DNA from: an uncultured Clostridia bacterium
Lineage (GTDB): Bacteria > Bacillota > Clostridia > Oscillospirales > Oscillospiraceae
Assembly: GCA_946617435.1 (NCBI GenBank)
Contig: CAMOKD010000003.1
Location: 5,779 to 69,778, forward strand
Direction of reading: 5' to 3'
DNA: 64,000 nucleotides
The position numbers and the translations under genes are program-made. The notes under the pieces were generated by a model. The model saw nothing but the letters and a program-made list of their open reading frames with translations. It did not search any database and was not told the origin of the DNA. Positions 8,877 to 59,136 of this stretch are shown here, one piece after another (positions within the stretch are counted from its first letter, which is position 1; every line of letters begins with the position of its first letter).

Positions 8877-9835
8877 ACCGAAAGACACAAATACTGACCC
8901 TTGGGGTGGGCCTGGGCGCCGGCCTGAGCGCCGCGGCCTGGGCGGGGATCCACCAGACCTTTCTGACGGAATGCTTCCGCCGCCGCGAACCGCTGCTGTT
9001 TGAAAAGTACGGCCAGGGCCGCCCTCAGACCGCGCTGGACCGCCGCTGCGCCACCATGGGCCTTGCCCTGGAGCAGGCCTGCACCCGCACCGTAACCACC
9101 CGCAGCTTTGACGGGACCCGTCTGGTGGGCCACTGGCTGCCCAGCCCCAACCCAAAGCGGATTCTCATTGCCGCCCACGGCTGGCGCGCATCCTGGACCA
9201 GGGACTTCTCTTTGAGCTGGCCCTTCTGGCGGGAGCAGGGCTGCAGCGTGCTCTATCTGGAGCAGCGGGCCCACGGCCAAAGCGAGGGCGACTGGATCGG
9301 CATGGGCGCACTGGAGCGCTATGATATACTCGCCTGGGTCCACGGGGTGCAAAAGCTCTGCCCCGGGGAGCTGCCCATCTATCTGTGCGGCATCTCCATG
9401 GGCGCGTCCTCGGTGATGCTGGCGGCCGGGCTGAATCTGCCCGCCAGGGTCAAGGGCATCCTGGCGGACTGCGGCTTTACCGGCCCGGGGCAGATTCTGC
9501 CCCATGTGTTCACCCGGGCCACGGGCCTGCCCTACGGCACCGGGGCGGCGGAGCGCAAGGCCTTCCGCCGCATCACCGGCATGGAGCCGGAGGAGGTCTC
9601 CACCACGGCGGTGCTGGCCAAGTCCAAGCTGCCCCTGCTGCTGATCCACGGGGAGAAGGACGGCTTTGTGCCCACCTATATGTCCTGGGAGAACTTCCGG
9701 GCTGCGGCGGGCCCCAAGGAGATCTTCCTGGTGCCCGGGGCGGGCCATGGCATGAGCTATGTGGTGGACCCCGAGGGCTACCAGCGCCGGGCAGCAGATT
9801 TCTTTGCCCGCTGGGACGGGGAGAGGCGGCCATGA
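8873..9835 (+). CDS. membrane-anchored alpha/beta-fold hydrolase
   Basis: 320-aa ORF. ATGA overlap with the upstream stop. N-terminal TM segment, nucleophile elbow GISMGAS, HG oxyanion motif (IAAHGW). Confidence 0.75.
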   Translation: MNRKTQILTLGVGLGAGLSAAAWAGIHQTFLTECFRRREPLLFEKYGQGRPQTALDRRCATMGLALEQACTRTVTTRSFDGTRLVGHWLPSPNPKRILIAAHGWRASWTRDFSLSWPFWREQGCSVLYLEQRAHGQSEGDWIGMGALERYDILAWVHGVQKLCPGELPIYLCGISMGASSVMLAAGLNLPARVKGILADCGFTGPGQILPHVFTRATGLPYGTGAAERKAFRRITGMEPEEVSTTAVLAKSKLPLLLIHGEKDGFVPTYMSWENFRAAAGPKEIFLVPGAGHGMSYVVDPEGYQRRAADFFARWDGERRP

Positions 9836-10911
9836 AGGCTCTGATTGCCATGAGCGGCGGTGTGGATTCTGCCGTGGCGGCCTGGCTGATGCAGCAGCAG
9901 GGCTGGGACTGCACCGGCTGCACCATGAAGCTGTACCAAAACGAGGACGCCGGCCTGAGCCGGGAGCACACCTGCTGCTCTTTAGACGATGTGGAGGACG
10001 CTCGGGCGGTGGCATACCGGCTGGGGATGCGCCACTATGTGTTCAATTTTTCCGACCGGTTCCGGGAGCGGGTCATTGACAAGTTTGTGGACAGCTATCT
10101 CCACGGCCTGACCCCCAACCCCTGCATTGACTGCAACCGCTATCTCAAGTTTGAGACTCTGTATCACCGGGCCCGGGAGCTGGGCTGTGACTGCGTGGTC
10201 ACCGGCCACTATGCCCGCATCACCTGTGAGGACGGGCAGTACCATCTGCGCAAGGGGTTGGATGCTTCCAAGGATCAGAGCTATGTGCTTTACACCCTCA
10301 CCCAGGACCAGCTGGCCCACACCCGCTTCCCCCTGGGGGAGCTGACCAAGGACCGGGCCAGGGCCATTGCGGAGGCCCAGGGCTTTGTCAACGCCCACAA
10401 GCCCGACAGCCAGGATATTTGCTTTGTCCCCGACGGGGACTATGCCCGGGTGATTGAGCGCTTCACCGGCGCCCCCGCCCCGGCAGGAGATTTTGTGGAT
10501 CTTCAGGGCCGGGTGCTGGGCCGTCACCGGGGTATCATTCATTACACTGTGGGCCAGCGCCGGGGCCTGGGCCTGTCCTTTTCCGAGCCCTGGTATGTGG
10601 TTGCCATTGACCCCAAGGCAAACACCGTCACCCTGGGGCCCAAGCAGGCGCTGTTCTCCCCAGTGGCCCGGGCGGGGGACTTCCATTGGATTTCCGGCTG
10701 CTGCCCGCAGACGCCTATCCGCTGCGCCGTCAAGATCCGCTACCGCCACCCGGAGCAGCCTGCCACCCTGATCCCCCTGGGACAGGATCTGGTGCGTCTG
10801 GAGTTTGACCAGCCCCAGCGGGCCATCACTCCCGGCCAGGCGGCGGTGGTCTATCAGGGCGACGAGGTGCTGGGCGGCGGCGTGCTGTGCAGAGAGGAGG
10901 ATGCGCTGTGA
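9832..10911 (+). CDS. mnmA: tRNA 2-thiouridine(34) synthase
   Basis: Start at ATG 9832 (MKALIAMSGGVDSAVAAWL, PP-loop SGGxDS), ATGA overlap with the hydrolase stop. Internal NPCIDCN and DQSY motifs are typical of MnmA. Confidence 0.92.
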   Translation: MKALIAMSGGVDSAVAAWLMQQQGWDCTGCTMKLYQNEDAGLSREHTCCSLDDVEDARAVAYRLGMRHYVFNFSDRFRERVIDKFVDSYLHGLTPNPCIDCNRYLKFETLYHRARELGCDCVVTGHYARITCEDGQYHLRKGLDASKDQSYVLYTLTQDQLAHTRFPLGELTKDRARAIAEAQGFVNAHKPDSQDICFVPDGDYARVIERFTGAPAPAGDFVDLQGRVLGRHRGIIHYTVGQRRGLGLSFSEPWYVVAIDPKANTVTLGPKQALFSPVARAGDFHWISGCCPQTPIRCAVKIRYRHPEQPATLIPLGQDLVRLEFDQPQRAITPGQAAVVYQGDEVLGGGVLCREEDAL

Positions 10912-13686: not shown

Positions 13687-13950
13687 TTAGGCCAGCTTGT
13701 TCAGCTTCAGGGTCATGCTGCTCTTCTTCCGGGCAGCGGTGTTCTTGTGGAGAAGACCCTTCTTCACAGCCTGATCAACAGTCTTCACAGCAGCCTTGTA
13801 GGTGCTGTCAGCCAGCTCGCGGTTACCTTCATCGACAGCGGCGTCGAACTTCTTGATCTCAGTCTTCAGGGCGGACTTGGCAGCCTTGTTTCTGGCGTTG
13901 GCGATCTTGGTCAGCTCGACTCTCTTCTTTGCGGACTTAATGTTGGGCAC
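13687..13950 (-). CDS. rpsT: 30S ribosomal protein S20
   Basis: GTG start (V/M)PNIKSAKKRVELTKIANARNKAAKS. GGAGGAGGTG RBS. 87 aa, typical of S20. Confidence 0.92.
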   Translation of the reverse strand: MPNIKSAKKRVELTKIANARNKAAKSALKTEIKKFDAAVDEGNRELADSTYKAAVKTVDQAVKKGLLHKNTAARKKSSMTLKLNKLA

Positions 13951-14301
13951 GGATTTACACCTCCTCCATGGCAATTCTATGTCAACAAAAAAATTGTCTC
14001 ACGCAGAAATGTATTATACTCGCTCTTGCCGCTAAAATCAATAGTTTTTTTCGGAAAATCCGGAAAAATTCTGATTTCTTTCTCTTACAACCGGGAAAAC
14101 CGGCCCCGCGGCCCCACAAAAATTCTCCATGCCCACGTCTGCGCTGGCCGGAAAAGGGGAGCACGGGCCCGCCGCAGCGGGCCGGCACGGCAAAATCCGG
14201 GGCTGTACGGAACAAAATAAGAATTTTGTCAGATTTCGCCGGAAACCTGATTATGTAAACAATTGACAATGCGCCGCAATATTTATGCAACCCGGCCTGT
14301 A

Positions 14302-14559: not shown

Positions 14560-15626
14560 TCACCACTTGACAACCCTGTTCCGCTCCAATTCGGTGAGCA
14601 TCCTGCCCAGGGCCGGGGGACGGAAGCAGGGCAGGGTCTCCATGGCGGTGTCCAGGGCGGCCAGATTCTCATCGTTGTGCTCCAGCTCCCGGCAGCAGTG
14701 CAGCAGCTGGGTCCGGGGCGGCAGGGCTCCGGGCAGGCCGGCCAGCAGCACCGGCAGCAGCACCGCGGTGAGACAGCGCTGCACCCGGCACAGCAGCCTG
14801 CCGTCGTCACAGGCATCCAGCCAGTACTTGTATAATGTATAATACAGAGCTCTGCCCAGGTCCAGGTCCAGCTCCGGGCCAGCCGGCGGGGCCGGCAGAC
14901 GCTCGGTCTCGGCCAGCTGCTGCAGCGCCCGGGTCCACGCCGGCTCCAGCTGTTCCAGATTCAAAAACACCCTGGCCCACTGCCGTGGCAGATCTCTGCC
15001 CACCCGCAGGGCAGGGGCGGGGGCATAGTGCCTGGGCCGAATCTTTCCCCCCGCCTGGGGTGGTCCAGGGCCAGCTGGACCTGCCCGGCCAGGGCCAGCA
15101 CGCTCCATGCCCGGCGGGAGAAGGGGAGGGCCTCCTTGGCCAGCAGGGCCAGGGCCTGCTCCCGGGCCTGCCGCAGCAGCATATAGCGTTCGGGGTCCAG
15201 GTCATTGGGCACCACGGGGTCCTGATTGGCTGCAGAAATCCGTCCGGGGGCCCGGCCCAGGGCCAGCTCCAGGGCCTCGGGGCAGGACATGGACAGTCCG
15301 TGCTCAGTGATCAGCCCGTAGTGGCGGACAAACCTGGGGTAATCCCGGCAGACGGTGCACATGGCCTCCAATCCCAGCCGGGCCTGGATGGGACACAGGC
15401 CGTTGGGCTGCAAAAGGACACACCTGCCCTCCCTCTGCCGGAAGACGGGCTCCTCTCCGGGCTCCACCGCCGCCCGGATCTGCTCGCCCAGGGGGCCCTC
15501 CAGGGCCCGGTAGCGGGCCAGGGTATCCGGGTCAATCACAATCTGCCACCCGCCGCAGCAGGTGGCCTGGCATTCACCGGCCAGACAGACGAAATCCGGC
15601 CAAAAGCTGGGGTATATATGCTCCAT
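14560..15626 (-). pseudogene. FliB-like (flagellin lysine-N-methylase family, CxxxCxxxCC YkgJ-type) gene interrupted by a frameshift
   Basis: The N-terminal ORF (15626 down to 14961) starts MEHIYPSFWPDFVCLAGECQATCCGGWQIVID, the FliB signature. The C-terminal continuation is in another frame (ORF 14560..15108). The frames switch at a C6 run (15047-15052). The total of 1067 nt needs +1 or -2 nt to be in frame. Confidence 0.6.
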
Positions 15627-15670
15627 AGTCACTCCCCGCCTCCCGGGACGGGGAATTCGCGTTTTTCCCC

Positions 15671-15699
15671 TTGACAACCGGGAGGCTGTCTGCTAAAAT
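15671..15699 (+). promoter_or_regulatory. sigma-A promoter for tRNA-Thr
   Basis: TTGACA, 17 nt, TAAAAT, 14 nt upstream of the tRNA 5' end. Confidence 0.7.
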
Positions 15700-15713: not shown

Positions 15714-15788
15714 GCCGATATGGCTCAAAGGTAGAGCACTTCACTCGTAATGAAGGGGTTGTGAGTTCGATTCTCACTATCGGCTCCA
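15714..15788 (+). tRNA. tRNA-Thr (anticodon CGT), CCA encoded
   Basis: Hand-folded cloverleaf: acceptor GCCGATA/TATCGGC, D stem GCTC/GAGC, anticodon stem CTTCA/TGAAG with loop CTCGTAA, T arm GTGAG-TTCGATT-CTCAC. Confidence 0.9.
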
Positions 15789-15834: not shown

Positions 15835-15861
15835 AAAAGGGGCCGGGCACGGCCCGGCCCC
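15835..15861 (-). terminator. rho-independent terminator after the flavoenzyme operon
   Basis: 9-bp GC stem ggggccggg/cccggcccc, followed on the minus strand by TTTT. Confidence 0.6.
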
Positions 15862-15870
15862 TGCGCTGGG

Positions 15871-17061
15871 TTAAAGAATGGGGATTTTAATGGTCAGGTC
15901 GCTGACAGGGTAGGCCGAGCAGGCGTGGAACCAGCCCAGCTCCTTGTCCATCATCCGGCGGCCGTCGCCGTTGGGGGAGACAAAGATCTCACCGGCCAGC
16001 AGCTGGGTCCGGCAATAGCCGCACTCGCCGCAGCGGCAGTGGGTGTCCACAGGGATCGCAGCCCGCTCCAGGGCCACGGCCACAGGCTCGTCGCCCCGGG
16101 CGTCGATGACGTCCTCGTGGATGCCCCGGCGAACGGTGAGCTTCCAAACCTTGTCCTTGTTCCCGGCGGGGTAGCCCTGGATCCGGGTGGGATCGGCGGG
16201 CTGGTTCATCACGTCGTGGCGGAACCGGCGGCAGGTGAGCCCCAGCTCGGTCACGGCCTGCTCCACCAGCTGGTACATGGCAATGGGACCGCAGAACATC
16301 ACCGTGGGGTCCTCGCCCATGTATTTGGCAATCAGCTCCTTGGTGATAAAGCCCTTCTCGCCCTGCCACTCCTCGTCGCCGGAGAGCACGTGGACCACCT
16401 TCACATTGGGGCAGTCGGCTTCCACCTTGGCCAGCTCCTCGCCCAGCACAATGTCGCTGTGGTGGACAGAGCCGTACAGGATGGTCAGCTTGACGTCCTT
16501 CATCTGGCCGTAGGCAATCTCCTTGGCCATGGAGAAGAAGGGGGTGATGCCGGAGCCGCCTGCCAGGGCCACCAGGTTTTTGCTGTCCCGCAGGGGCTCG
16601 TAGTAGAAGGTGCCAAAGGGCATGTTGCCCTGCAGCAGGTCACCCACGCGCACATGGTCAAAGAAGTAGTCCGGCACCAGATAGGGACGGTTGCGGCGGA
16701 TGGTGATTTCGATAAAGGGGTTCTTCCCCCGGGCCTCAAAGGGGGCAGAGGAGATGGTGTAGGGCCGGGTGAGCTCACTCTGGCCGATGTGCAGGCGGAA
16801 GTTCACGTACTGCCCGCTCTGGAACACGGGGATGTGCCCGTCGGTGCTGGCCAGCCGATAGACCCTGGAGGTGGGGGAGGCCTCCCGGATGGAGACTACC
16901 CTGAATTCCATCTTGTCCGGGTGGAGCTGATCTGCCACCGTGCGGATGTTGTCCTTGGGATCGGGGGTGGAGGAGGCGTCTGCAAAGCTCTTGCGGCGGG
17001 CCTCGGTGACCCGGCTGGCGCCGCCCACATCCTTCAAAAAGCCCTTGACCTTAATGCTCAT
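15871..17061 (-). CDS. FNR-like FAD/NAD(P)H oxidoreductase fused to a C-terminal plant-type [2Fe-2S] ferredoxin domain
   Basis: 396 aa. FAD motif RPYTISS, NAD(P) motif LAGGSGITPF, C-terminal Cys pattern C-x4-C-x2-C-x30-C (HCRCGECGYC...HAC). ATGA overlap with the upstream gene. Confidence 0.85.
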   Translation of the reverse strand: MSIKVKGFLKDVGGASRVTEARRKSFADASSTPDPKDNIRTVADQLHPDKMEFRVVSIREASPTSRVYRLASTDGHIPVFQSGQYVNFRLHIGQSELTRPYTISSAPFEARGKNPFIEITIRRNRPYLVPDYFFDHVRVGDLLQGNMPFGTFYYEPLRDSKNLVALAGGSGITPFFSMAKEIAYGQMKDVKLTILYGSVHHSDIVLGEELAKVEADCPNVKVVHVLSGDEEWQGEKGFITKELIAKYMGEDPTVMFCGPIAMYQLVEQAVTELGLTCRRFRHDVMNQPADPTRIQGYPAGNKDKVWKLTVRRGIHEDVIDARGDEPVAVALERAAIPVDTHCRCGECGYCRTQLLAGEIFVSPNGDGRRMMDKELGWFHACSAYPVSDLTIKIPIL

Positions 17062-18599
17062 TTGCCTGCCTCCTTTCTGGCCAGATCGTCCAGCACGCCC
17101 TTGGCGGCGGCCCGGCCGTTGGTGATCTGGGGGCCCATGCCGTCGCCGGACATTCCGTGGGCGCCGGCAAATTCCAGACCCTCAATAAAGTGGTCGTCCT
17201 GCTTCATCTGCAGGCGGGCCACCGCGTGGTCCTCCAGGCGGTGGGAATAGCCGTAGATGTTGCCCTTCCAGGCGCCCACATAGTGGGCAATGGTCATGGG
17301 GGTTTCCACCTCCAGCTCCACAATGTTCTTGCGGAAGTCCACGCCGGAGATTTTGATGTACTCCTCCATCATCTCGTTGGCCAGCCGCCGTTTCAGGGGC
17401 AGGTACTCCTCCTCAGTGACGCTCTCAAAGGGCTTGGAGGGCACCAGGGCCGTAATGGAGACCTGGCAGTAGCCCTTGGGCACACAGTCGGGGTTGGCGT
17501 AGTTCAGGCAGATGGTGGTGATATAGTTGTAGGGCTCGGTGAGATTGGAGTAGTTCTCCATGATCTCGTTGGTGTCCATGGTCCGGCCGGAGAAGGTGGA
17601 GTAGTTCATCAGGCCGTTCTCCTCCGGGGTCCCCTCCAAAATGGCGATGACCGACACCGGAGTCAAGGACAGCTCCCGGCCGTTGACCATCTTGATGGCC
17701 TCCTTCGGCACCTCGGACAGGGGCTCAATCATCTGGGTATAGACCTTGTTGGGGTAGGGGGCCGCAATCACATAGTCGCAGTAGATCTCGTCGCCCCGGT
17801 GGGTGCGCACGCCGTAGACTCTGCGGTTCTTGACCAGGATCTTGTCCACCTCCTGGCGGAACTCAAACTGGGCGCCGTTTTCCTCCACCTTTTGCTGCAG
17901 CTTCATAGACATCTCGTGGCTGTAGCCCCGGCAGACGTAGGAGCCGGTGAAGTAATCCGCCATGAGGAAGGCGTAGATGGTGAAGGGGAGCTTGTCCATG
18001 GGGCTGCCCACATAGATCCAGTAGGGGGTCAGCAGCTCCACCGCCTTTTTGGGCAGGTGGAAGGTGTTGATCACCTCTGTGGCGGAGTAGCCCACGGTTT
18101 TTACAAAATCGGGGTGCTTGAGCAGCATCATCGGCTTGCTCATGGGGGTGACGGAGAGGATGTTCATGCTGTCGTATACCCGGCGGCACAGGAGCATCAG
18201 CTCGTGGACCTTTTCAAAGGTGCCGGGCACGGCGGCGTCGATCTCCCGGGCCATGCGCTCATAGCCCTCGTGGAGGGTGACGTCCAGGTCGGAGTTGGGA
18301 AGCACCGCCCTGTAGCACTCGGGCACGTGGAGCCAGTCAATGTCCACACCCATGTCGTCAAAGAACTGGCCCACCTTCAACCGGTTGTCCTTGGTGCCGA
18401 TGGACATCATCTCATGGAGGGTGGCCTCAATCTCGAAGCCGTTGCGGACAAAGTCCGTGGCCAGGCCGCCGGGGAGGTTGTGCTTTTCCAGGATCAGGAT
18501 GTCCTTTACACCCTTGGCCTGGAGCTGCAGCGCCGCCGACATGCCCGCCAGTCCACCGCCGATGATGACCACCTGGTAATGGTCCTTATAGAATTTCAT
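17058..18599 (-). CDS. CrtI/phytoene-desaturase-family NAD(P)/FAD-dependent oxidoreductase
   Basis: Start at MKFYKDHYQVVIIGGGLAGMSAAL (GxGxxG), RBS AAAGGTGG. 513 aa. The C-terminal FAGAHGMSGDGMGPQITNGRAAA is typical of this family. Confidence 0.8.
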   Translation of the reverse strand: MKFYKDHYQVVIIGGGLAGMSAALQLQAKGVKDILILEKHNLPGGLATDFVRNGFEIEATLHEMMSIGTKDNRLKVGQFFDDMGVDIDWLHVPECYRAVLPNSDLDVTLHEGYERMAREIDAAVPGTFEKVHELMLLCRRVYDSMNILSVTPMSKPMMLLKHPDFVKTVGYSATEVINTFHLPKKAVELLTPYWIYVGSPMDKLPFTIYAFLMADYFTGSYVCRGYSHEMSMKLQQKVEENGAQFEFRQEVDKILVKNRRVYGVRTHRGDEIYCDYVIAAPYPNKVYTQMIEPLSEVPKEAIKMVNGRELSLTPVSVIAILEGTPEENGLMNYSTFSGRTMDTNEIMENYSNLTEPYNYITTICLNYANPDCVPKGYCQVSITALVPSKPFESVTEEEYLPLKRRLANEMMEEYIKISGVDFRKNIVELEVETPMTIAHYVGAWKGNIYGYSHRLEDHAVARLQMKQDDHFIEGLEFAGAHGMSGDGMGPQITNGRAAAKGVLDDLARKEAGK

Positions 18600-18671
18600 C
18601 GGATTCCACCTTTCTGTAACAGTGCAGGGGAGGTGTAGCCTCCCCTGCAAATTTCATAGCTGGCGCCTGCC

Positions 18672-20066
18672 TCAGAAGAAACGCTCCACCAGTTCGCGGG
18701 AGTACTCGGCGGTCTCGTCCATATCGCCGAAGGACATAATCTCACCGGCGTAGAAGGTGTCGTACTTGTCCTGCATGGCCTCAACCTTGTCGTACCAGCC
18801 GGCGGCATAGTCGTCGGAGAAGACATGGGGGAAGTAGTACACAGACCACTCGTTGATCACGTTGGAGGCAGGGTTCTTCATGGTCTTCAGGTCGTCCAGA
18901 ACCATCTGGCGGCACTCCTCGTAGGGAACCTCCCGGCGGGTCTTGTGCTTGCGCAGGGCATAGGTGGTGATGACCTGATCCTTGGTGTCCTTCCAGCGGC
19001 GATAGTAGACCATCAGGTGGCCCAGGCGCTCGGGCACCATGTTGTCAAATACGTAGTAGGAGATCTCGGGGTGATCCTCGGGCTTGGTCTCCACGGCCAG
19101 CACGTCGTAGCGCTCGTAATCGATCTTGGAGAACAGCTCCTTCTCGTCCTCGCGGGCGTCAAAGAAGTCCACCATGCCCACCAGGCCGTCCTTGCGGTTT
19201 TCCTTGTTGGCCACATACAGGGGAGAGGTGACGATGATCTTGTCATACTCTTCCACCGCGCCGTTGACGGTGACGTAGACCTTGCCGTCCTTGCGCTCTA
19301 CCTTTTCGATGATGGAGTTCAGCCGAGCAGGGTTCTTCAGGTGCTCGTTGAGCTGCTCCCAGATGTACTGGGTGCCTTCCTTCCAGGTCCAGAGATTGAC
19401 GTTGACAAAGTTCATGCAGGTCTGGAAGTCCAGATACTTCAGCACGTAGGCGGCGGGGATTTCGTCAAAGTAGCCATAGCCGAAGGAGGTGAAGGGCCCG
19501 ATCCAGACGTCCTGGGTCAGCTCCACGCCGTTGATGCGGCAGAATTCGCTGAACGGCAGGGCCAGATCCTTCAGGTTGGGGTTAAAGCCGGAGACAGGCT
19601 CCCGCTTGGCGTTGCGGGCGGAGAAGCCGTCATACCGGCCCTCGGCCACGCCCCGGTGGCCGTTCAGGTCATAGCCCTTGTACTTGGTCTCCAGGATTTC
19701 GCCCAGCTTCTTCACCTGCTTTTTCATCTTCAGCAGGCGGGGGATCTTGGTGATGTTCTTCTTGGGCTCAAAGGGCTCAATCACATTGCCTTCGCTGTCC
19801 TTGTAGTTCCGGTTCAGCTTGGGGCCGTCGTGGGTGATGCCGCAGAATTCCTCTACGTCGTGCACGGCGTAGTAGGAGGGCACGCCCATAATGGCGCCCA
19901 TCTCATACCGGCGGCCGTTGTAGTGGGGGGACCAGCACTTGCCGCCCACCCGGTCGGCCTTTTCCAGGATGGTGTAGTTGGTATAGCCCTTCTTTTCCAG
20001 GTACATGCCGGCAGACAGACCGGCGGGGCCGCCGCCGATGATACAGATGCGAGTGGATTTATCCAT
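18672..20066 (-). CDS. FAD-dependent amine-oxidase-fold protein resembling polyenoic fatty acid isomerase (PAI type)
   Basis: 464 aa. RICIIGGGPAGLSAGMYLEKKGYTNYTILEKADRVGGKCWSPHYNGRRYEMGAIMGVPSY and the C-terminal FYAGEIMSFGDMDETAEYSRELVERFF closely resemble the Cutibacterium acnes PAI sequence as I remember it (unverified). AAGGAGG RBS. Confidence 0.65.
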   Translation of the reverse strand: MDKSTRICIIGGGPAGLSAGMYLEKKGYTNYTILEKADRVGGKCWSPHYNGRRYEMGAIMGVPSYYAVHDVEEFCGITHDGPKLNRNYKDSEGNVIEPFEPKKNITKIPRLLKMKKQVKKLGEILETKYKGYDLNGHRGVAEGRYDGFSARNAKREPVSGFNPNLKDLALPFSEFCRINGVELTQDVWIGPFTSFGYGYFDEIPAAYVLKYLDFQTCMNFVNVNLWTWKEGTQYIWEQLNEHLKNPARLNSIIEKVERKDGKVYVTVNGAVEEYDKIIVTSPLYVANKENRKDGLVGMVDFFDAREDEKELFSKIDYERYDVLAVETKPEDHPEISYYVFDNMVPERLGHLMVYYRRWKDTKDQVITTYALRKHKTRREVPYEECRQMVLDDLKTMKNPASNVINEWSVYYFPHVFSDDYAAGWYDKVEAMQDKYDTFYAGEIMSFGDMDETAEYSRELVERFF

Positions 20067-20233
20067 AAGATAAGCCTCCTTAAATTAATCCGCCGTTATT
20101 ATACTACATCCCCGTCCAAATTGCACTACTTTTTTTCCTGAGAAATAAAAATTCCTGTATCTTTTTTACAAACCTGATGGTATAATAGGGAAAACCGGGC
20201 CTGCGGCCCGGAACCAAGGAAAGGAGCGATTAG

Positions 20234-21580
20234 ATGCGGTTTGATTCCTTTTCCCATCTGCTCTCTCACCAGGCCCTGGCCCTGGGCGACCGGATTGCCC
20301 TGCGCGGCGCCGGGGTGGAATACACCTACCGGCAGCTCTGTGACCGGGCCCTGGCCCTGGCTGAGGACTGGCGTCGGGCTGGCAAAACCTGCCTTGGCGT
20401 GCTGTGCGACGGCACGCCGGAGTGTGTCCTTGCCATACTCTCGGCCAATCTGGCCGGGCTGCAGGTGGTGCTGCTGGACGAGCATACGCCGGAGTCCCTG
20501 CTGCCCCGGTTGATCGAATACACCGATGTGGACGTCCTCTGGGGCGACGAGGACCTGGTGCAGGACCTTGCCCCCTATCTCACCGCCGGGGTGCAAAACG
20601 GCGCCGGCAGGCTGCTGTTCTTCACCTCCGGCACCACCCGGGCGGCCAAGGCTGTGGTGCTGACCGACCGCAGTCTCTGCGCCAGCGCCTACAACGGCGG
20701 GGCAAAGCTGCCCCTGTCGACTGACGACACCCTGCTTTGTATGCTGCCGCTGAACCATGTGTTCGGCTTTGTCTGCGGCCTTCTCTGGGCTCTGAGCTGC
20801 GGCGCTGCGGTGGCCATGGGCCGGGGTATGCGGCATTATGGGGACGACTGCGGCTTTTTCAAGCCCACGGTGCTCTCTGCGGTGCCGTCTCTGCTGGGCT
20901 TTTTGCTCCGGGCGGGGGCCATCAATCCGGAGCTCCGGCTCATTCTGGTGGGGGCAGGGGACTGCCCGCCCCAGCTGCTGCGCAGCGCCGAGGAGCTGGG
21001 CCTGCAAATCAGCTTCGGCTACGGCCTTACGGAGACCAGCTCCGGCGTGGCCCTGTCCGTCTCGGGCAATCCCTATGCCATGGAGATCTGCCCCGACGAC
21101 ACCGTCACCCTGGCCGAGGATGGGGAGATTCTGATCCACGCCCCCACCTGTATCATGCAGGGCTACTATAAGCTGCCCGAGGAGACCGACCAGGTCCTGC
21201 AAAACGGCATTCTCCACACCGGCGACCTGGGCTTTTTGGACGAGGAGGGGCGGCTGCATCTCCAGGGCCGCAAAAAGGAGATCCTGGTGCTCCAGGATGG
21301 CACTAAGCTCTACCTGCCGGAGTACGAATCCGCCCTGGCCCAGCTGCTGCAGACCCGGGAGCTGGCTGTGGTGCTGAGACAGCAGATCCCCACCCTGGTG
21401 CTTCAGGGCCAGGGCGAGGAGCAGGAGCTGCTCCGCCGTCTGGCCCCGGTGAATGCCGACCGGCCCAGGAATCAGCAGATCAAAAAAGTCATTTTTCTCT
21501 CCCAAAGCCTGCCCCGCACTGCCACGGGCAAGCTCAAGCGCTGGGAGCTCAATCAAATCATAGAGGAGACCATGTTATGA
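20234..21580 (+). CDS. class-I adenylate-forming enzyme (acyl-AMP/acyl-carrier ligase-like)
   Basis: 448 aa. AMP-binding core FFTSGTTRAAKAVVLT, plus GYGLTETSS, GDLGFLDEEGRLHLQGRKKE and a terminal PRTATGKLKR. AAGGAAAGGAG RBS. Confidence 0.85.
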   Translation: MRFDSFSHLLSHQALALGDRIALRGAGVEYTYRQLCDRALALAEDWRRAGKTCLGVLCDGTPECVLAILSANLAGLQVVLLDEHTPESLLPRLIEYTDVDVLWGDEDLVQDLAPYLTAGVQNGAGRLLFFTSGTTRAAKAVVLTDRSLCASAYNGGAKLPLSTDDTLLCMLPLNHVFGFVCGLLWALSCGAAVAMGRGMRHYGDDCGFFKPTVLSAVPSLLGFLLRAGAINPELRLILVGAGDCPPQLLRSAEELGLQISFGYGLTETSSGVALSVSGNPYAMEICPDDTVTLAEDGEILIHAPTCIMQGYYKLPEETDQVLQNGILHTGDLGFLDEEGRLHLQGRKKEILVLQDGTKLYLPEYESALAQLLQTRELAVVLRQQIPTLVLQGQGEEQELLRRLAPVNADRPRNQQIKKVIFLSQSLPRTATGKLKRWELNQIIEETML

Positions 21581-21831
21581 CACACGCAGAAATTCTGGAA
21601 CGCACCAAAGAGATCATCTACGAGGCAGCCCCCCGCATGGAGGGCACGGACCTGCAGGAGGACACCGTGATCAACACCGACGCCGCCATTGACTCCATGG
21701 GCTTTACCCTGGTGATCTGCCGGCTGGAGGCGGATTTTGACATCCGCATCCCCGACCGTCAGTGGCAAAAGCTCCAGACCCTGGGCGACGTGGTCACCGC
21801 CATCGAAAAGCAGCTGGCCAAAAAGGGCTGA
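21577..21831 (+). CDS. stand-alone acyl carrier protein
   Basis: 84 aa. ATGA overlap with the ligase gene. Phosphopantetheine-site motif AIDSMGF, acidic helix-bundle composition. Confidence 0.8.
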   Translation: MTHAEILERTKEIIYEAAPRMEGTDLQEDTVINTDAAIDSMGFTLVICRLEADFDIRIPDRQWQKLQTLGDVVTAIEKQLAKKG

Positions 21832-21877
21832 GTCCGCCTCTTGGCACCGTACATCATTCAAACACAGGTAGACATCT

Positions 21878-22597
21878 ATGGAGATTTACGAACAGACCGT
21901 CACCCTGCACAACGCGGACGTAGATATGCACCGCCGCCTGAGACTGTCGGTGCTCTTCACCCTCCTGCAGGAGAGCGCCATTGCCCACACCACCCTTTTG
22001 GGGGCCGGACGGGAAAAGACCCTGGACCGGGGTCTTTTGTGGGTCATCGCCCTGCAGCAGGCCGATATCACCCGCCTGCCGGAGTATGACGAGACCGTCA
22101 CCCTCCAGTCCTGGCCCGGCAGCCTGATGCACGTGTTCTTTCCCCGGTACTACCGGCTGCTGGACGCCGCCGGCGGGGAACTGGTTCGGGGCTGCGCCCT
22201 GTGGGCGCTGATGCGGGCCTCCAGCCGCGCCATGGTGTTTCCGGAAGAGGAAGGGGTCGCTATTCCCGGTGTCCGCACCGGCTGGGAGACCCCTCTGCCC
22301 CGGATGCCCCGCCCGGCCCAGGCCCAGGGCAGCAGCACCTTCACCGTGCCCTACAGCTACACAGATCTCAACGGACACATGAACAACACCCGCTACTTTG
22401 ATCTCATGCAGGATACCCTGCCCCTGGAGCTTACCGCCCGCACCCCCCGCTGCGTCCGGGCAGAATACACCGCCGAAGCCCGCTGCGGCACTGAGATTGC
22501 CCTGCACTGGGCCCGCCAGGAGGACTGCTGGCAGCTCTGGGGCGAGGGGGACAAGCGGCTGTTCAGACTGGCGGTGGACTATGACCCGGCACTTTGA
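21878..22597 (+). CDS. acyl-[ACP] thioesterase (FatA/B-like double hot-dog)
   Basis: 239 aa. Typical N-terminus YEQTVTLHNADVDMHRRLRLSVLFTLLQESAIAHT and a second-half motif YTDLNGHMNNTRYFD. Confidence 0.82.
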   Translation: MEIYEQTVTLHNADVDMHRRLRLSVLFTLLQESAIAHTTLLGAGREKTLDRGLLWVIALQQADITRLPEYDETVTLQSWPGSLMHVFFPRYYRLLDAAGGELVRGCALWALMRASSRAMVFPEEEGVAIPGVRTGWETPLPRMPRPAQAQGSSTFTVPYSYTDLNGHMNNTRYFDLMQDTLPLELTARTPRCVRAEYTAEARCGTEIALHWARQEDCWQLWGEGDKRLFRLAVDYDPAL

Positions 22598-49669: not shown

Positions 49670-49672
49670 CAA

Positions 49673-49847
49673 CGAAATCCGTCCTTTCGGACGGGTGAAA
49701 TCTACCTTCGGTGGGTGAAATCGCTTCGCGGTGAAATCCCGCTTCGCGGGGTGCGGGACGGATTTCATTTCACCCGAGGACGAAGTCCGAGGATTTCACC
49801 AATGGCATTGGCCGTTGATTTCACCGCGGCCGGGGCCGCGATTTCAC
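49673..49847. repeat. array of 8-bp units: 4 x (G/C)GAAATC/GTGAAATC followed by 4-5 x inverted GATTTCAC, each separated by a short GC hairpin
   Basis: Forward units at 49673, 49695, 49715, 49731. Inverted units at 49761/49767, 49792, 49817, 49840. Spacers are self-complementary: ccgtcc-tttc-ggacgg, ctacc-ttc-ggtgg, cccgc-ttc-gcggg, ggac-gaa-gtcc, ccaat-ggc-attgg, gcggc-cggg-gccgc. Confidence 0.8.
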
Positions 49848-58883: not shown

Positions 58884-59136
58884 TCCGCCGCCGCACCGCC
58901 CTTTGCAGGAATTTTGGGTAAAGAAAACCCCGCTGTGGCCGTGTGTACCCGTTTATAACCTGCACGAAAAAGGGCAGGTGGGTTGCCTCTCCGCGGCTTC
59001 GCTGTTCCCAACGTCCACCCACGGTCGCGGCCGGGGCGGGAGGTCTACAATCCAACACGGAAGTATCAGGCATCCCTGAGATATGATGTGGGTTTAAAGG
59101 GGTACATCACGCACCAAGCAGGGTGTTCAAATGAAG

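Follow-up and report, generated by a model that had tools for sequence, protein, structure and literature searches.

Ruminal biohydrogenation sets the fatty-acid composition of milk and meat, and its trans-10 shift causes milk-fat depression. To our knowledge, the linoleate isomerase PAI of C. acnes is the only known enzyme that forms the trans-10,cis-12 isomer of conjugated linoleic acid (CLA). Among 28 rumen species C. acnes was the sole trans-10 former and it was judged an unlikely main agent in vivo; reviews from June and August 2026 describe the enzymes and hosts of biohydrogenation as poorly resolved. A homologue of PAI is encoded in the genome of an uncultured Clostridia bacterium of the family Oscillospiraceae (contig CAMOKD010000003.1), within a 64-kb stretch of DNA that was analysed as a whole and is called the window here. 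There it heads an operon with genes for a CrtI-like FAD enzyme and an FNR-like reductase with a 2Fe-2S domain. This operon diverges from a second one encoding an adenylate-forming (ANL) ligase, an acyl carrier protein (ACP), and an acyl-ACP thioesterase. The six genes are read here, with a little more confidence than doubt, as a pathway of the trans-10 type for the isomerisation and reduction of polyunsaturated fatty acids (PUFAs). The core of this reading, namely the orthology of PAI and the co-conservation of the six genes, is solid, while the reductase's chemistry and the carrier's role are putative.

The described systems that come closest each share one part of this locus. The CLA-HY/DH/DC/ER system of L. 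plantarum is likewise a multi-gene bacterial route for the isomerisation and saturation of linoleic acid as free acids. However, it employs a hydratase, an SDR, an acetoacetate-decarboxylase-like isomerase, and an enone reductase, and its intermediates are hydroxy and oxo acids. Among the six window proteins, not one matches the Pfam families of these enzymes, so the mismatch to the Lactobacillus system that had been predicted is real. The CLA reductase of B. fibrisolvens reportedly converts a conjugated diene fatty acid to a trans-monoene, is induced by linoleic acid, and has a subunit of ~53-60 kDa. This is the activity proposed here for the CrtI-like protein, a likeness drawn by activity alone and not by sequence; unlike the proposed pathway, the B. 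fibrisolvens enzyme belongs to the trans-11 series. Its gene was sequenced in 2007 and is reported not to be represented in KEGG, COG, or Pfam.

The isomerase is supported by strong homology. A phmmer search of the PDB matched the 464-aa protein to C. acnes PAI (2b9w) over its full length (E=2.6e-137), in two stretches comprising residues 2-138 and 164-464. The next matches were amine oxidases (E~1e-8), which share only the Rossmann motif. Identity to P0257, a PAI relative, is 54% in a MAFFT alignment, and the similarity to PAI overall corresponds to ~54-60% identity. Pfam assigns NAD_binding_8 and Amino_oxidase domains, and residues 11-16 form the same FAD-binding Rossmann motif as in C. acnes PAI (GGGPAG). 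Arg88, Phe168, and Phe193 of the C. acnes enzyme, which we take to gate the substrate channel and bind the carboxylate, align with R86, F195, and F220 of the window protein. These roles reportedly go back to the 2006 structure paper of Liavonchanka. None of the three varies among ten close homologues or among seven proteins that represent all clades. By these features the window protein is truly homologous to the C. acnes enzyme, as the original prediction had it, and does not group with amine oxidases. Its homology strongly supports isomerisation of linoleate to a trans-10,cis-12 conjugated diene.

Differences from the C. acnes enzyme concern both the protein and its surroundings. An insertion of ~25 aa at residues 139-163 (after Gly-His133) is absent in C. 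acnes and shared with the Erysipelotrichales and Coriobacteriia clades, and a second insertion of 12 aa lies near residue 286. An AF2 model reached a pLDDT of 42.6 from a shallow alignment (10 sequences, 82-87% identical) and was discarded. The C. acnes-type gene, whose product is 98% identical to 2b9w, stands alone among genes for GNAT, gyrB, DcuA, and MFS proteins. In contrast, the window homologue heads a conserved CrtI-FNR operon beside the ligase, ACP, and thioesterase genes.

The conservation of this arrangement was followed in one genome per species, of which 421 carry a PAI relative; locus counts refer to the best 80 (L001-L080). Among these 80 loci, tblastn recovered PAI in 80, the CrtI-like gene in 78, the FNR-like gene in 76, the ligase in 70, the ACP in 68, and the thioesterase in 66, and contig ends explain most of the missing genes. 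Sixty loci, each from the genome of a different species, were complete, meaning that all six genes were present at a coverage of at least 80%. Gene order and orientation (thioesterase-ACP-ligase on one side, PAI-CrtI-FNR on the other) are identical in 58 of the 60, which puts the arrangement far beyond chance. In the remaining two, the ligase-ACP-thioesterase genes lie a few kb upstream on the same strand. The methyltransferase gene downstream of the cluster is found in only three of the 80 loci and is not co-conserved.

Nearly all of the best 80 of the 421 genomes are metagenome-assembled genomes (MAGs) from the guts of cattle, goat, sheep, deer, buffalo, and related ruminants. They are labelled Oscillospiraceae/Ruminococcaceae, Lachnospiraceae, Clostridia, Eubacterium, Anaerovoracaceae, or Porcincola, with two labelled Sphaerochaetaceae. 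The system had been placed in gut Clostridia; more narrowly, its carriers live mainly in the guts of ruminants. As for the six-gene unit that had been proposed, its co-conservation holds in Oscillospiraceae, Lachnospiraceae, other Clostridia, and even Erysipelotrichales. All six genes are kept in a spore-forming Clostridia MAG with a 425-aa form of PAI and in a Solobacterium locus (Erysipelotrichales) with ~50% PAI identity. In the Solobacterium cluster, a 4HBT thioesterase gene lies between the PAI and CrtI-like genes and a DegV gene (FakB-type, fatty-acid-binding) adjoins the acyl-ACP thioesterase gene, which is consistent with fatty-acid substrates. A PAI homologue from Eggerthellaceae occurs without the module. 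A tblastn search of PLSDB, aimed at Butyrivibrio and other annotated replicons, returned only matches of 24-26% identity in Bacillus and Photobacterium. The two loci labelled Sphaerochaetaceae (L019 and L041; Spirochaetota) hold a Clostridia-type cluster with 87-88% PAI identity, owing to either horizontal transfer or mis-binning.

PAI stands out from its neighbours in how little it has diverged. Across 64 loci, protein identity is 87.6% for PAI, 66.6% for the CrtI-like enzyme, 58.0% for the FNR-like reductase, 55.2% for the ligase, and 52.5% for the thioesterase. At four-fold degenerate sites, however, the PAI genes are only 51.7% identical, against ~49% expected from composition, and are thus saturated like the neighbouring genes. 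PAI is under unusually strong purifying selection, and because these sites are saturated, its high identity reflects constraint; recent horizontal transfer as the cause was ruled out on the same grounds.

The second flavoenzyme is by its fold a member of the CrtI superfamily. CrtI, CRTISO, and RetSat resemble the 513-aa protein in fold and FAD binding, and putatively in using long hydrophobic polyene chains as substrates; RetSat is a member able to saturate a C=C bond. Pfam assigns Amino_oxidase, NAD_binding_8, and DAO domains, and both flavoenzymes of the cluster contain a GxGxxG motif. An AF2 model of good quality (pLDDT 83, pTM 0.82) was matched by Foldseek best to 4rep (E=9e-25, TM 0.76/0.79) and then to CrtI (4dgk, E=5e-19), so that the modelled fold is of the CrtI three-domain type. 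The scores remain below every curated cut-off for carotenoid enzymes (TIGR02734, the phytoene desaturase family, 109 versus 238.1 bits; TIGR02730, the carotenoid isomerase, 101.3 versus 586.9 bits), and neither phytoene synthase nor any other carotenoid-pathway gene was found near the cluster. The CrtI-family assignment made earlier thus agrees with the fold, and the protein fails the cut-offs of carotenoid enzymes. Roles as an amine oxidase, protoporphyrinogen oxidase, or carotenoid enzyme were ruled out by the family scores and the gene context.

This evidence also bears on the idea that the cluster acts outside fatty-acid metabolism, with amines, tetrapyrroles, or isoprenoids as the substrates of its flavoenzymes and a merely coincidental neighbourhood of the ligase, ACP, and thioesterase genes. 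Such a role has almost nothing to recommend it beyond the source annotations, which read 'protoporphyrinogen oxidase' or 'prolycopene isomerase', and the membership of both flavoenzymes in the Amino_oxidase superfamily. It conflicts with the full-length similarity to PAI and its conserved channel residues, with curated protoporphyrinogen oxidase and carotenoid models that score far below cut-off, and with the conserved synteny with acyl-ACP genes.

The third gene of the operon encodes the presumed electron source. Its product combines FAD_binding_6 and NAD_binding_1 domains with a C-terminal plant-type Fer2 domain and contains the motifs RPYT, GGSGITP, and Cx4Cx2Cx29C, just as the FNR-like reductase with its own 2Fe-2S domain had been described. 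The same combination of an FNR-like FAD/NAD module with a plant-type 2Fe-2S domain is found in BenC, PaaE, MmoC, and Hcr, and among PDB entries the protein is matched best by cytochrome b5 reductase and BenC. Unlike in those systems, the partner in the window is a CrtI-fold flavoprotein, the hosts are strict anaerobes, and the scores are far below the NCBIfam cut-offs (BenC, 122 versus 430 bits; Hcr-type, 122 versus 383; PaaE, 101 versus 421). Neither an oxygenase nor a hybrid-cluster partner was found at the locus. We know of no CrtI enzyme with a dedicated FNR/2Fe-2S reductase as its partner, and this too sets the window protein apart from CrtI, CRTISO, and RetSat.

Several lines of evidence support the two proteins as one enzyme system. 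Their genes overlap by four nucleotides (ATGA) in the window and are separated by a median of 9 bp in other loci, and their divergence co-varies (Spearman rho=0.60). An exhaustive search of 1.84 billion representative proteins yielded 213 relatives of the CrtI-like protein at E<=1e-30. Five of them (P0389, P0472, P0496, P0516, and P0523) are fusions with FAD_binding_6, NAD_binding_1, and Fer2 domains, in both domain orders, from Syntrophales and Deltaproteobacteria MAGs. These fusions lend independent support to the built-in electron supply that had been proposed and suggest that self-sufficient CrtI-fold reductases make up a broader, uncharacterised family among anaerobes. Coupling, co-variation, and fusions together suggest that electrons would pass from NAD(P)H to FAD, on to the [2Fe-2S] cluster, and finally to the FAD of the CrtI-like enzyme.

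The direction of this electron flow is a matter of redox potentials. NAD(P)H as donor lies at about -320 mV and the C=C/CH-CH couple near 0 mV, so that reduction is favoured. With a donor ~300 mV below the acceptor couple and anaerobic hosts in which no oxidant is evident, the CrtI-like enzyme would most likely catalyse the net reduction of a double bond. An improbable variant makes this protein a redox-neutral isomerase of the CRTISO type, in which the FNR-like reductase merely keeps the FAD reduced and the product is another CLA isomer, formed for instance by cis-to-trans conversion or bond migration. CRTISO reportedly uses reduced FAD with no net redox change, and the window protein scores nearly as well with TIGR02730 as with TIGR02734 (101 versus 109 bits). 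However, a dedicated NAD(P)H reductase that is encoded stoichiometrically and sometimes fused is more typical of net electron delivery, and the cluster already contains an isomerase.

Thermodynamics also bear on a biosynthetic function, in which a specialised lipid (for instance a conjugated polyene, formed by an extra desaturation, or a furan or branched fatty-acid precursor) would be made on the ACP and the CrtI-like enzyme would be a desaturase like UfaD. CrtI-family fatty-acyl desaturases reportedly exist, UfaD of furan fatty-acid synthesis being one, and biosynthetic clusters typically come with an ACP and a thioesterase of their own. Nevertheless, desaturation towards NAD(P)+ is uphill and these anaerobes offer no evident quinone or O2 acceptor; genes for chain building, methylation, or tailoring are missing; and the distribution of the cluster fits a diet-derived substrate. 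A biosynthetic function is therefore considered very unlikely. The flanks lead in the same direction as the earlier statement that the locus has no synthesis genes, since no ketosynthase, acyltransferase, condensation, or fab gene occurs among the cluster or flanking genes and the flanks prove to be housekeeping.

The rightward operon contributes an acyl carrier module. The ligase (AMP-binding, 126.7 bits) has the core motifs of AMP-binding enzymes and their C-terminal catalytic Lys (TSGTTRAAK, YGLTE, TGD, GRKKE, and PRTATGK). It is a generic ANL enzyme that stays below NCBIfam cut-offs, and its closest structures are oxalate-CoA ligase, MenE, and FadD13. From the ATGA overlap of the ligase and ACP genes and their conserved adjacency, it is proposed to be a fatty acyl-ACP synthetase that would transfer the acyl group to ACP and not to CoA. 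The ACP is a PP-binding protein with a DSM phosphopantetheine site at residues 39-41 (Ser40). Because it scores 44.7 bits on ACP models with a cut-off of 70, it is not of the housekeeping AcpP type. The thioesterase, of the FatA/FatB type (TE14), comprises both hot-dog domains (Acyl-ACP_TE, PF01643, and Acyl-ACP_TE_C, PF20791), with the catalytic NxHxNN motif as NGHMNN at residues 165-170, and its best PDB match is the oleoyl-ACP thioesterase of L. plantarum (2own, E=6.7e-18).

Taken as a PUFA pathway, the locus would be an inducible system that handles dietary C18 polyunsaturated fatty acids by biohydrogenation of the trans-10 type. In a first step, for which the homology is strong, the PAI homologue with its FAD would convert free linoleic or linolenic acid to the trans-10,cis-12 conjugated diene. 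The CrtI-fold enzyme may then reduce one bond of the conjugated diene, most simply to trans-10-18:1, with electrons delivered by the translationally coupled reductase. In a third and least certain step, the ligase might load the CLA intermediate or product onto the ACP, from which the thioesterase would release it. The carrier may be the site of this reduction, or it may steer the detoxified acid either into membrane lipid synthesis or away from it. This order departs from the sequence of loading, isomerisation, reduction, and release in the original prediction. Domains for activation, carriage, and release are all present as predicted, but since the Arg88 that clamps the carboxylate is retained, the isomerase probably acts on the free acid, not on acyl-ACP. 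Isomerisation would then probably precede any loading onto the ACP, and the order first suggested is doubtful.

A number of points weigh against this pathway. The CrtI family consists mostly of desaturases or isomerases, and saturases such as RetSat are the exception. The clade-specific insertions of PAI could alter its specificity, and the regiochemistry of the product is not readable from sequence. Others touch on the unity of the cluster. The Arg88 clamp may argue that the ACP module lies outside the chemical sequence of the isomerase. CrtI-like and FNR-like identities in L001-L080 fall into three discrete classes (~80-92/70-83%, ~67/60%, and ~57-63/42-54%) that are uncorrelated with those of the ligase, ACP, and thioesterase, which suggests exchange of the reductase pair as a single unit. 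Finally, a few Lachnospiraceae loci have no ligase-ACP-thioesterase genes nearby.

These last three observations are also what would be expected of two co-regulated modules with no carrier chemistry, one on the left detoxifying free PUFAs and one on the right scavenging exogenous fatty acids. In this arrangement the acyl-ACP synthetase and an auxiliary ACP would supply phospholipid synthesis, and the thioesterase would serve as a relief valve. The DegV protein next to the thioesterase in Solobacterium fits such scavenging, and auxiliary ACPs for exogenous fatty acids are reportedly known from Enterococcus. Yet the divergent adjacency of the modules in 58 of 60 loci and across taxonomic classes exceeds what loose co-regulation usually maintains, and a synthetase and a thioesterase acting on one carrier would be futile unless a step intervened. 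Two separate modules, the main alternative, are accordingly regarded as possible but doubtful.

Relatives of the window lineage often have a further gene next to the cluster. In 48 of the 80 loci, a ~937-aa Fe-S flavoprotein is encoded ~28 bp downstream of the FNR-like gene, often as two to three paralogues, and these proteins are 75-87% identical among loci. An unannotated N-terminus of ~310 aa is followed by Fer4 4Fe-4S, DPD-domain II (PF14691), and Pyr_redox_2 (PF07992) domains, and some copies end in a C-terminal 4Fe-4S motif. A HypA-like gene flanks the gene in 14 loci and a HypB-like gene in 17, and a TetR gene is sometimes present. In one distant clostridial locus (L082) the order is FNR, TetR, IsrA-like, HypA, HypB, rpsT.

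The closest described counterpart is the isr operon. IsrA, a putative isoprene (conjugated-diene) reductase of Acetobacterium wieringae, has 901 aa, and the neighbours of its homologues include HypA (73%), HypB (56%), and TetR (21%). The isr authors suggested terpenes as substrates of these homologues, with fatty acids unmentioned. The ~937-aa protein was compared with IsrA by its published description only, and in this comparison the domain order and the HypA/HypB/TetR neighbours match. No report of IsrA homologues linked to a linoleate isomerase cluster appears to exist. In relatives, the IsrA-like flavoprotein with its HypA/HypB nickel chaperones could carry out further C=C reduction.

Unlike in these relatives, no gene of the IsrA type is present in the window, where a tblastn search for it gave only Rossmann-motif matches. 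Because the window, like L082, has rpsT close to its cluster, the window lineage may have lost the module. A more ambitious and so far tentative proposal assembles all of these parts. The six genes, together with the IsrA-like nickel-dependent enzyme of most relatives, would be the genetic basis of ruminal trans-10 biohydrogenation in uncultured Clostridia. PAI would form trans-10,cis-12-CLA, the CrtI/FNR-2Fe2S pair would be the CLA reductase, possibly acting on an ACP-tethered substrate, and the IsrA-like enzyme would saturate the remaining unactivated bond to give stearate.

The layout of the cluster in the window is summarised below. The six intact open reading frames (ORFs), three on each strand, lie where the original prediction had put them in an ORF and Pfam check. 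The divergent operons, both ATGA overlaps, the AT-rich promoter region, and the domain calls for all six proteins were likewise as described. All six proteins have retained their cofactor and catalytic motifs intact.

Features of the cluster (15871-22597), its surroundings, and related loci. Coordinates are forward-strand positions in the 64-kb window unless a locus is named.
Feature	Position	Strand	Details
FNR-like + 2Fe-2S reductase	15871-17061	-	396 aa
CrtI-like FAD enzyme	17058-18599	-	513 aa from ATG
PAI homologue	18672-20066	-	464 aa
ANL ligase	20234-21580	+	448 aa
ACP	21577-21831	+	84 aa
Acyl-ACP thioesterase	21878-22597	+	239 aa
Divergent promoter region	20067-20233		167 bp, 40.7% GC
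-10 box, leftward operon	20098-20103	-	perfect TATAAT
Extended -10 box, rightward operon	20178-20186	+	TG-n-TATAAT; perfect TATAAT at 20181-20186, TG upstream
Hairpin in ligase 5' leader	20195-20211	+	7-bp all-GC stem, CCGGGCC...GGCCCGG
Stem-loop between PAI and CrtI-like genes	18624-18648	-	10-bp GC-rich stem GCAGGGGAGG ... CCTCCCCTGC, without T-run
Alternative CrtI-like start	18650	-	TTG, 530 aa
Intrinsic terminator, leftward operon	15835-15861	-	9-bp GC stem GGGGCCGGG / CCCGGCCCC, then TTTT
tRNA-Thr	15714-15788
Cys-rich ORF	14961-15677	-	238 aa
rpsT	13687-13974
Gut-1 sRNA	49670-49742	+	Rfam, 73 bits
6S RNA	58923-59127	-	Rfam, 56 bits
~937-aa gene (example)	L059:14176-16998	+
~937-aa gene (example)	L082:12870-15611	+
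~937-aa gene (example)	L025:3193-5973	-
rpsT in distant clostridial locus	L082:16724-17002
DegV and 4HBT genes in Solobacterium	L084:4635-5498, 9423-9872	-

The spacer between the two operons differs in composition from the cluster, which has a GC content of 61.2%, and its length is conserved across related loci (median ~190 bp). Both divergent start codons have strong ribosome-binding sites (RBSs), AGGAGG 8 nt ahead of the PAI ATG and AAGGAAAGGAG for the ligase. The hairpin in the ligase leader follows the -10 box and precedes the RBS; read on the other strand, it looks like a terminator. A search for a conserved operator in the divergent promoters of 65 loci brought up nothing beyond extended -10 elements, A-tracts, and a GTAGTGCA motif in a minority. 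Within the leftward operon, 72 nt separate the PAI and CrtI-like genes. The stem-loop in this spacer is possibly an RNA stability or attenuation element and could set differential expression of the genes. The alternative CrtI-like start sits in a hairpin and has no RBS. The terminator of the operon is located between the stop codon of the FNR-like gene and tRNA-Thr. An Rfam scan of the window identified no riboswitch or known RNA within the cluster.

Beyond the terminator, the flanking genes (a sigma factor, rpsT, and tRNA-Thr) have housekeeping functions. The other flank encodes an RlmA-type methyltransferase, thymidine kinase, purine nucleoside phosphorylase, phosphopentomutase, cytidine deaminase, and a Bmp lipoprotein. 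A Cys-rich ORF beside tRNA-Thr matches no Pfam family at E<=1e-4. Elsewhere in the window, Rfam detected a Gut-1 sRNA adjoining a tRNA, and a 6S RNA.

Parts of this system have surfaced in recent literature. A 2026 paper in Microbiome found, by BLASTp, transcripts of PAI homologues in rumen Lachnospiraceae, Anaerovoracaceae, and Oscillospiraceae (Limivicinus). It called the reductases less well characterised and did not consider gene context. Neither the cluster nor a reductase linked to PAI was found described in the literature searched, which covered few subscription journals, and 'undescribed' is thus provisional. The pathway had been predicted to be undescribed, which stands for the cluster in the searchable literature but not for the PAI homologues of these taxa, already noted in 2026. 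Bacterial isomerisation and saturation of PUFAs were known as well; what is new is the set of partner enzymes around a known isomerase.

For the ruminant-gut Firmicutes that carry it, the cluster means that PAI orthologues are maintained under extreme constraint (421 species genomes with a relative, habitat from the best 80). The locus supplies clonable candidates for the missing reductase step and connects a dedicated acyl carrier system with the pathway. The question of the trans-10 pathway thereby becomes testable by heterologous expression, and the genes of the cluster can serve as markers when the trans-10 shift is followed in metagenomes and metatranscriptomes. If the extended proposal that includes the IsrA-like enzyme is true, fatty-acid C=C reductases would gain two new classes, and the organisms responsible for diet-induced milk-fat depression would be identified.

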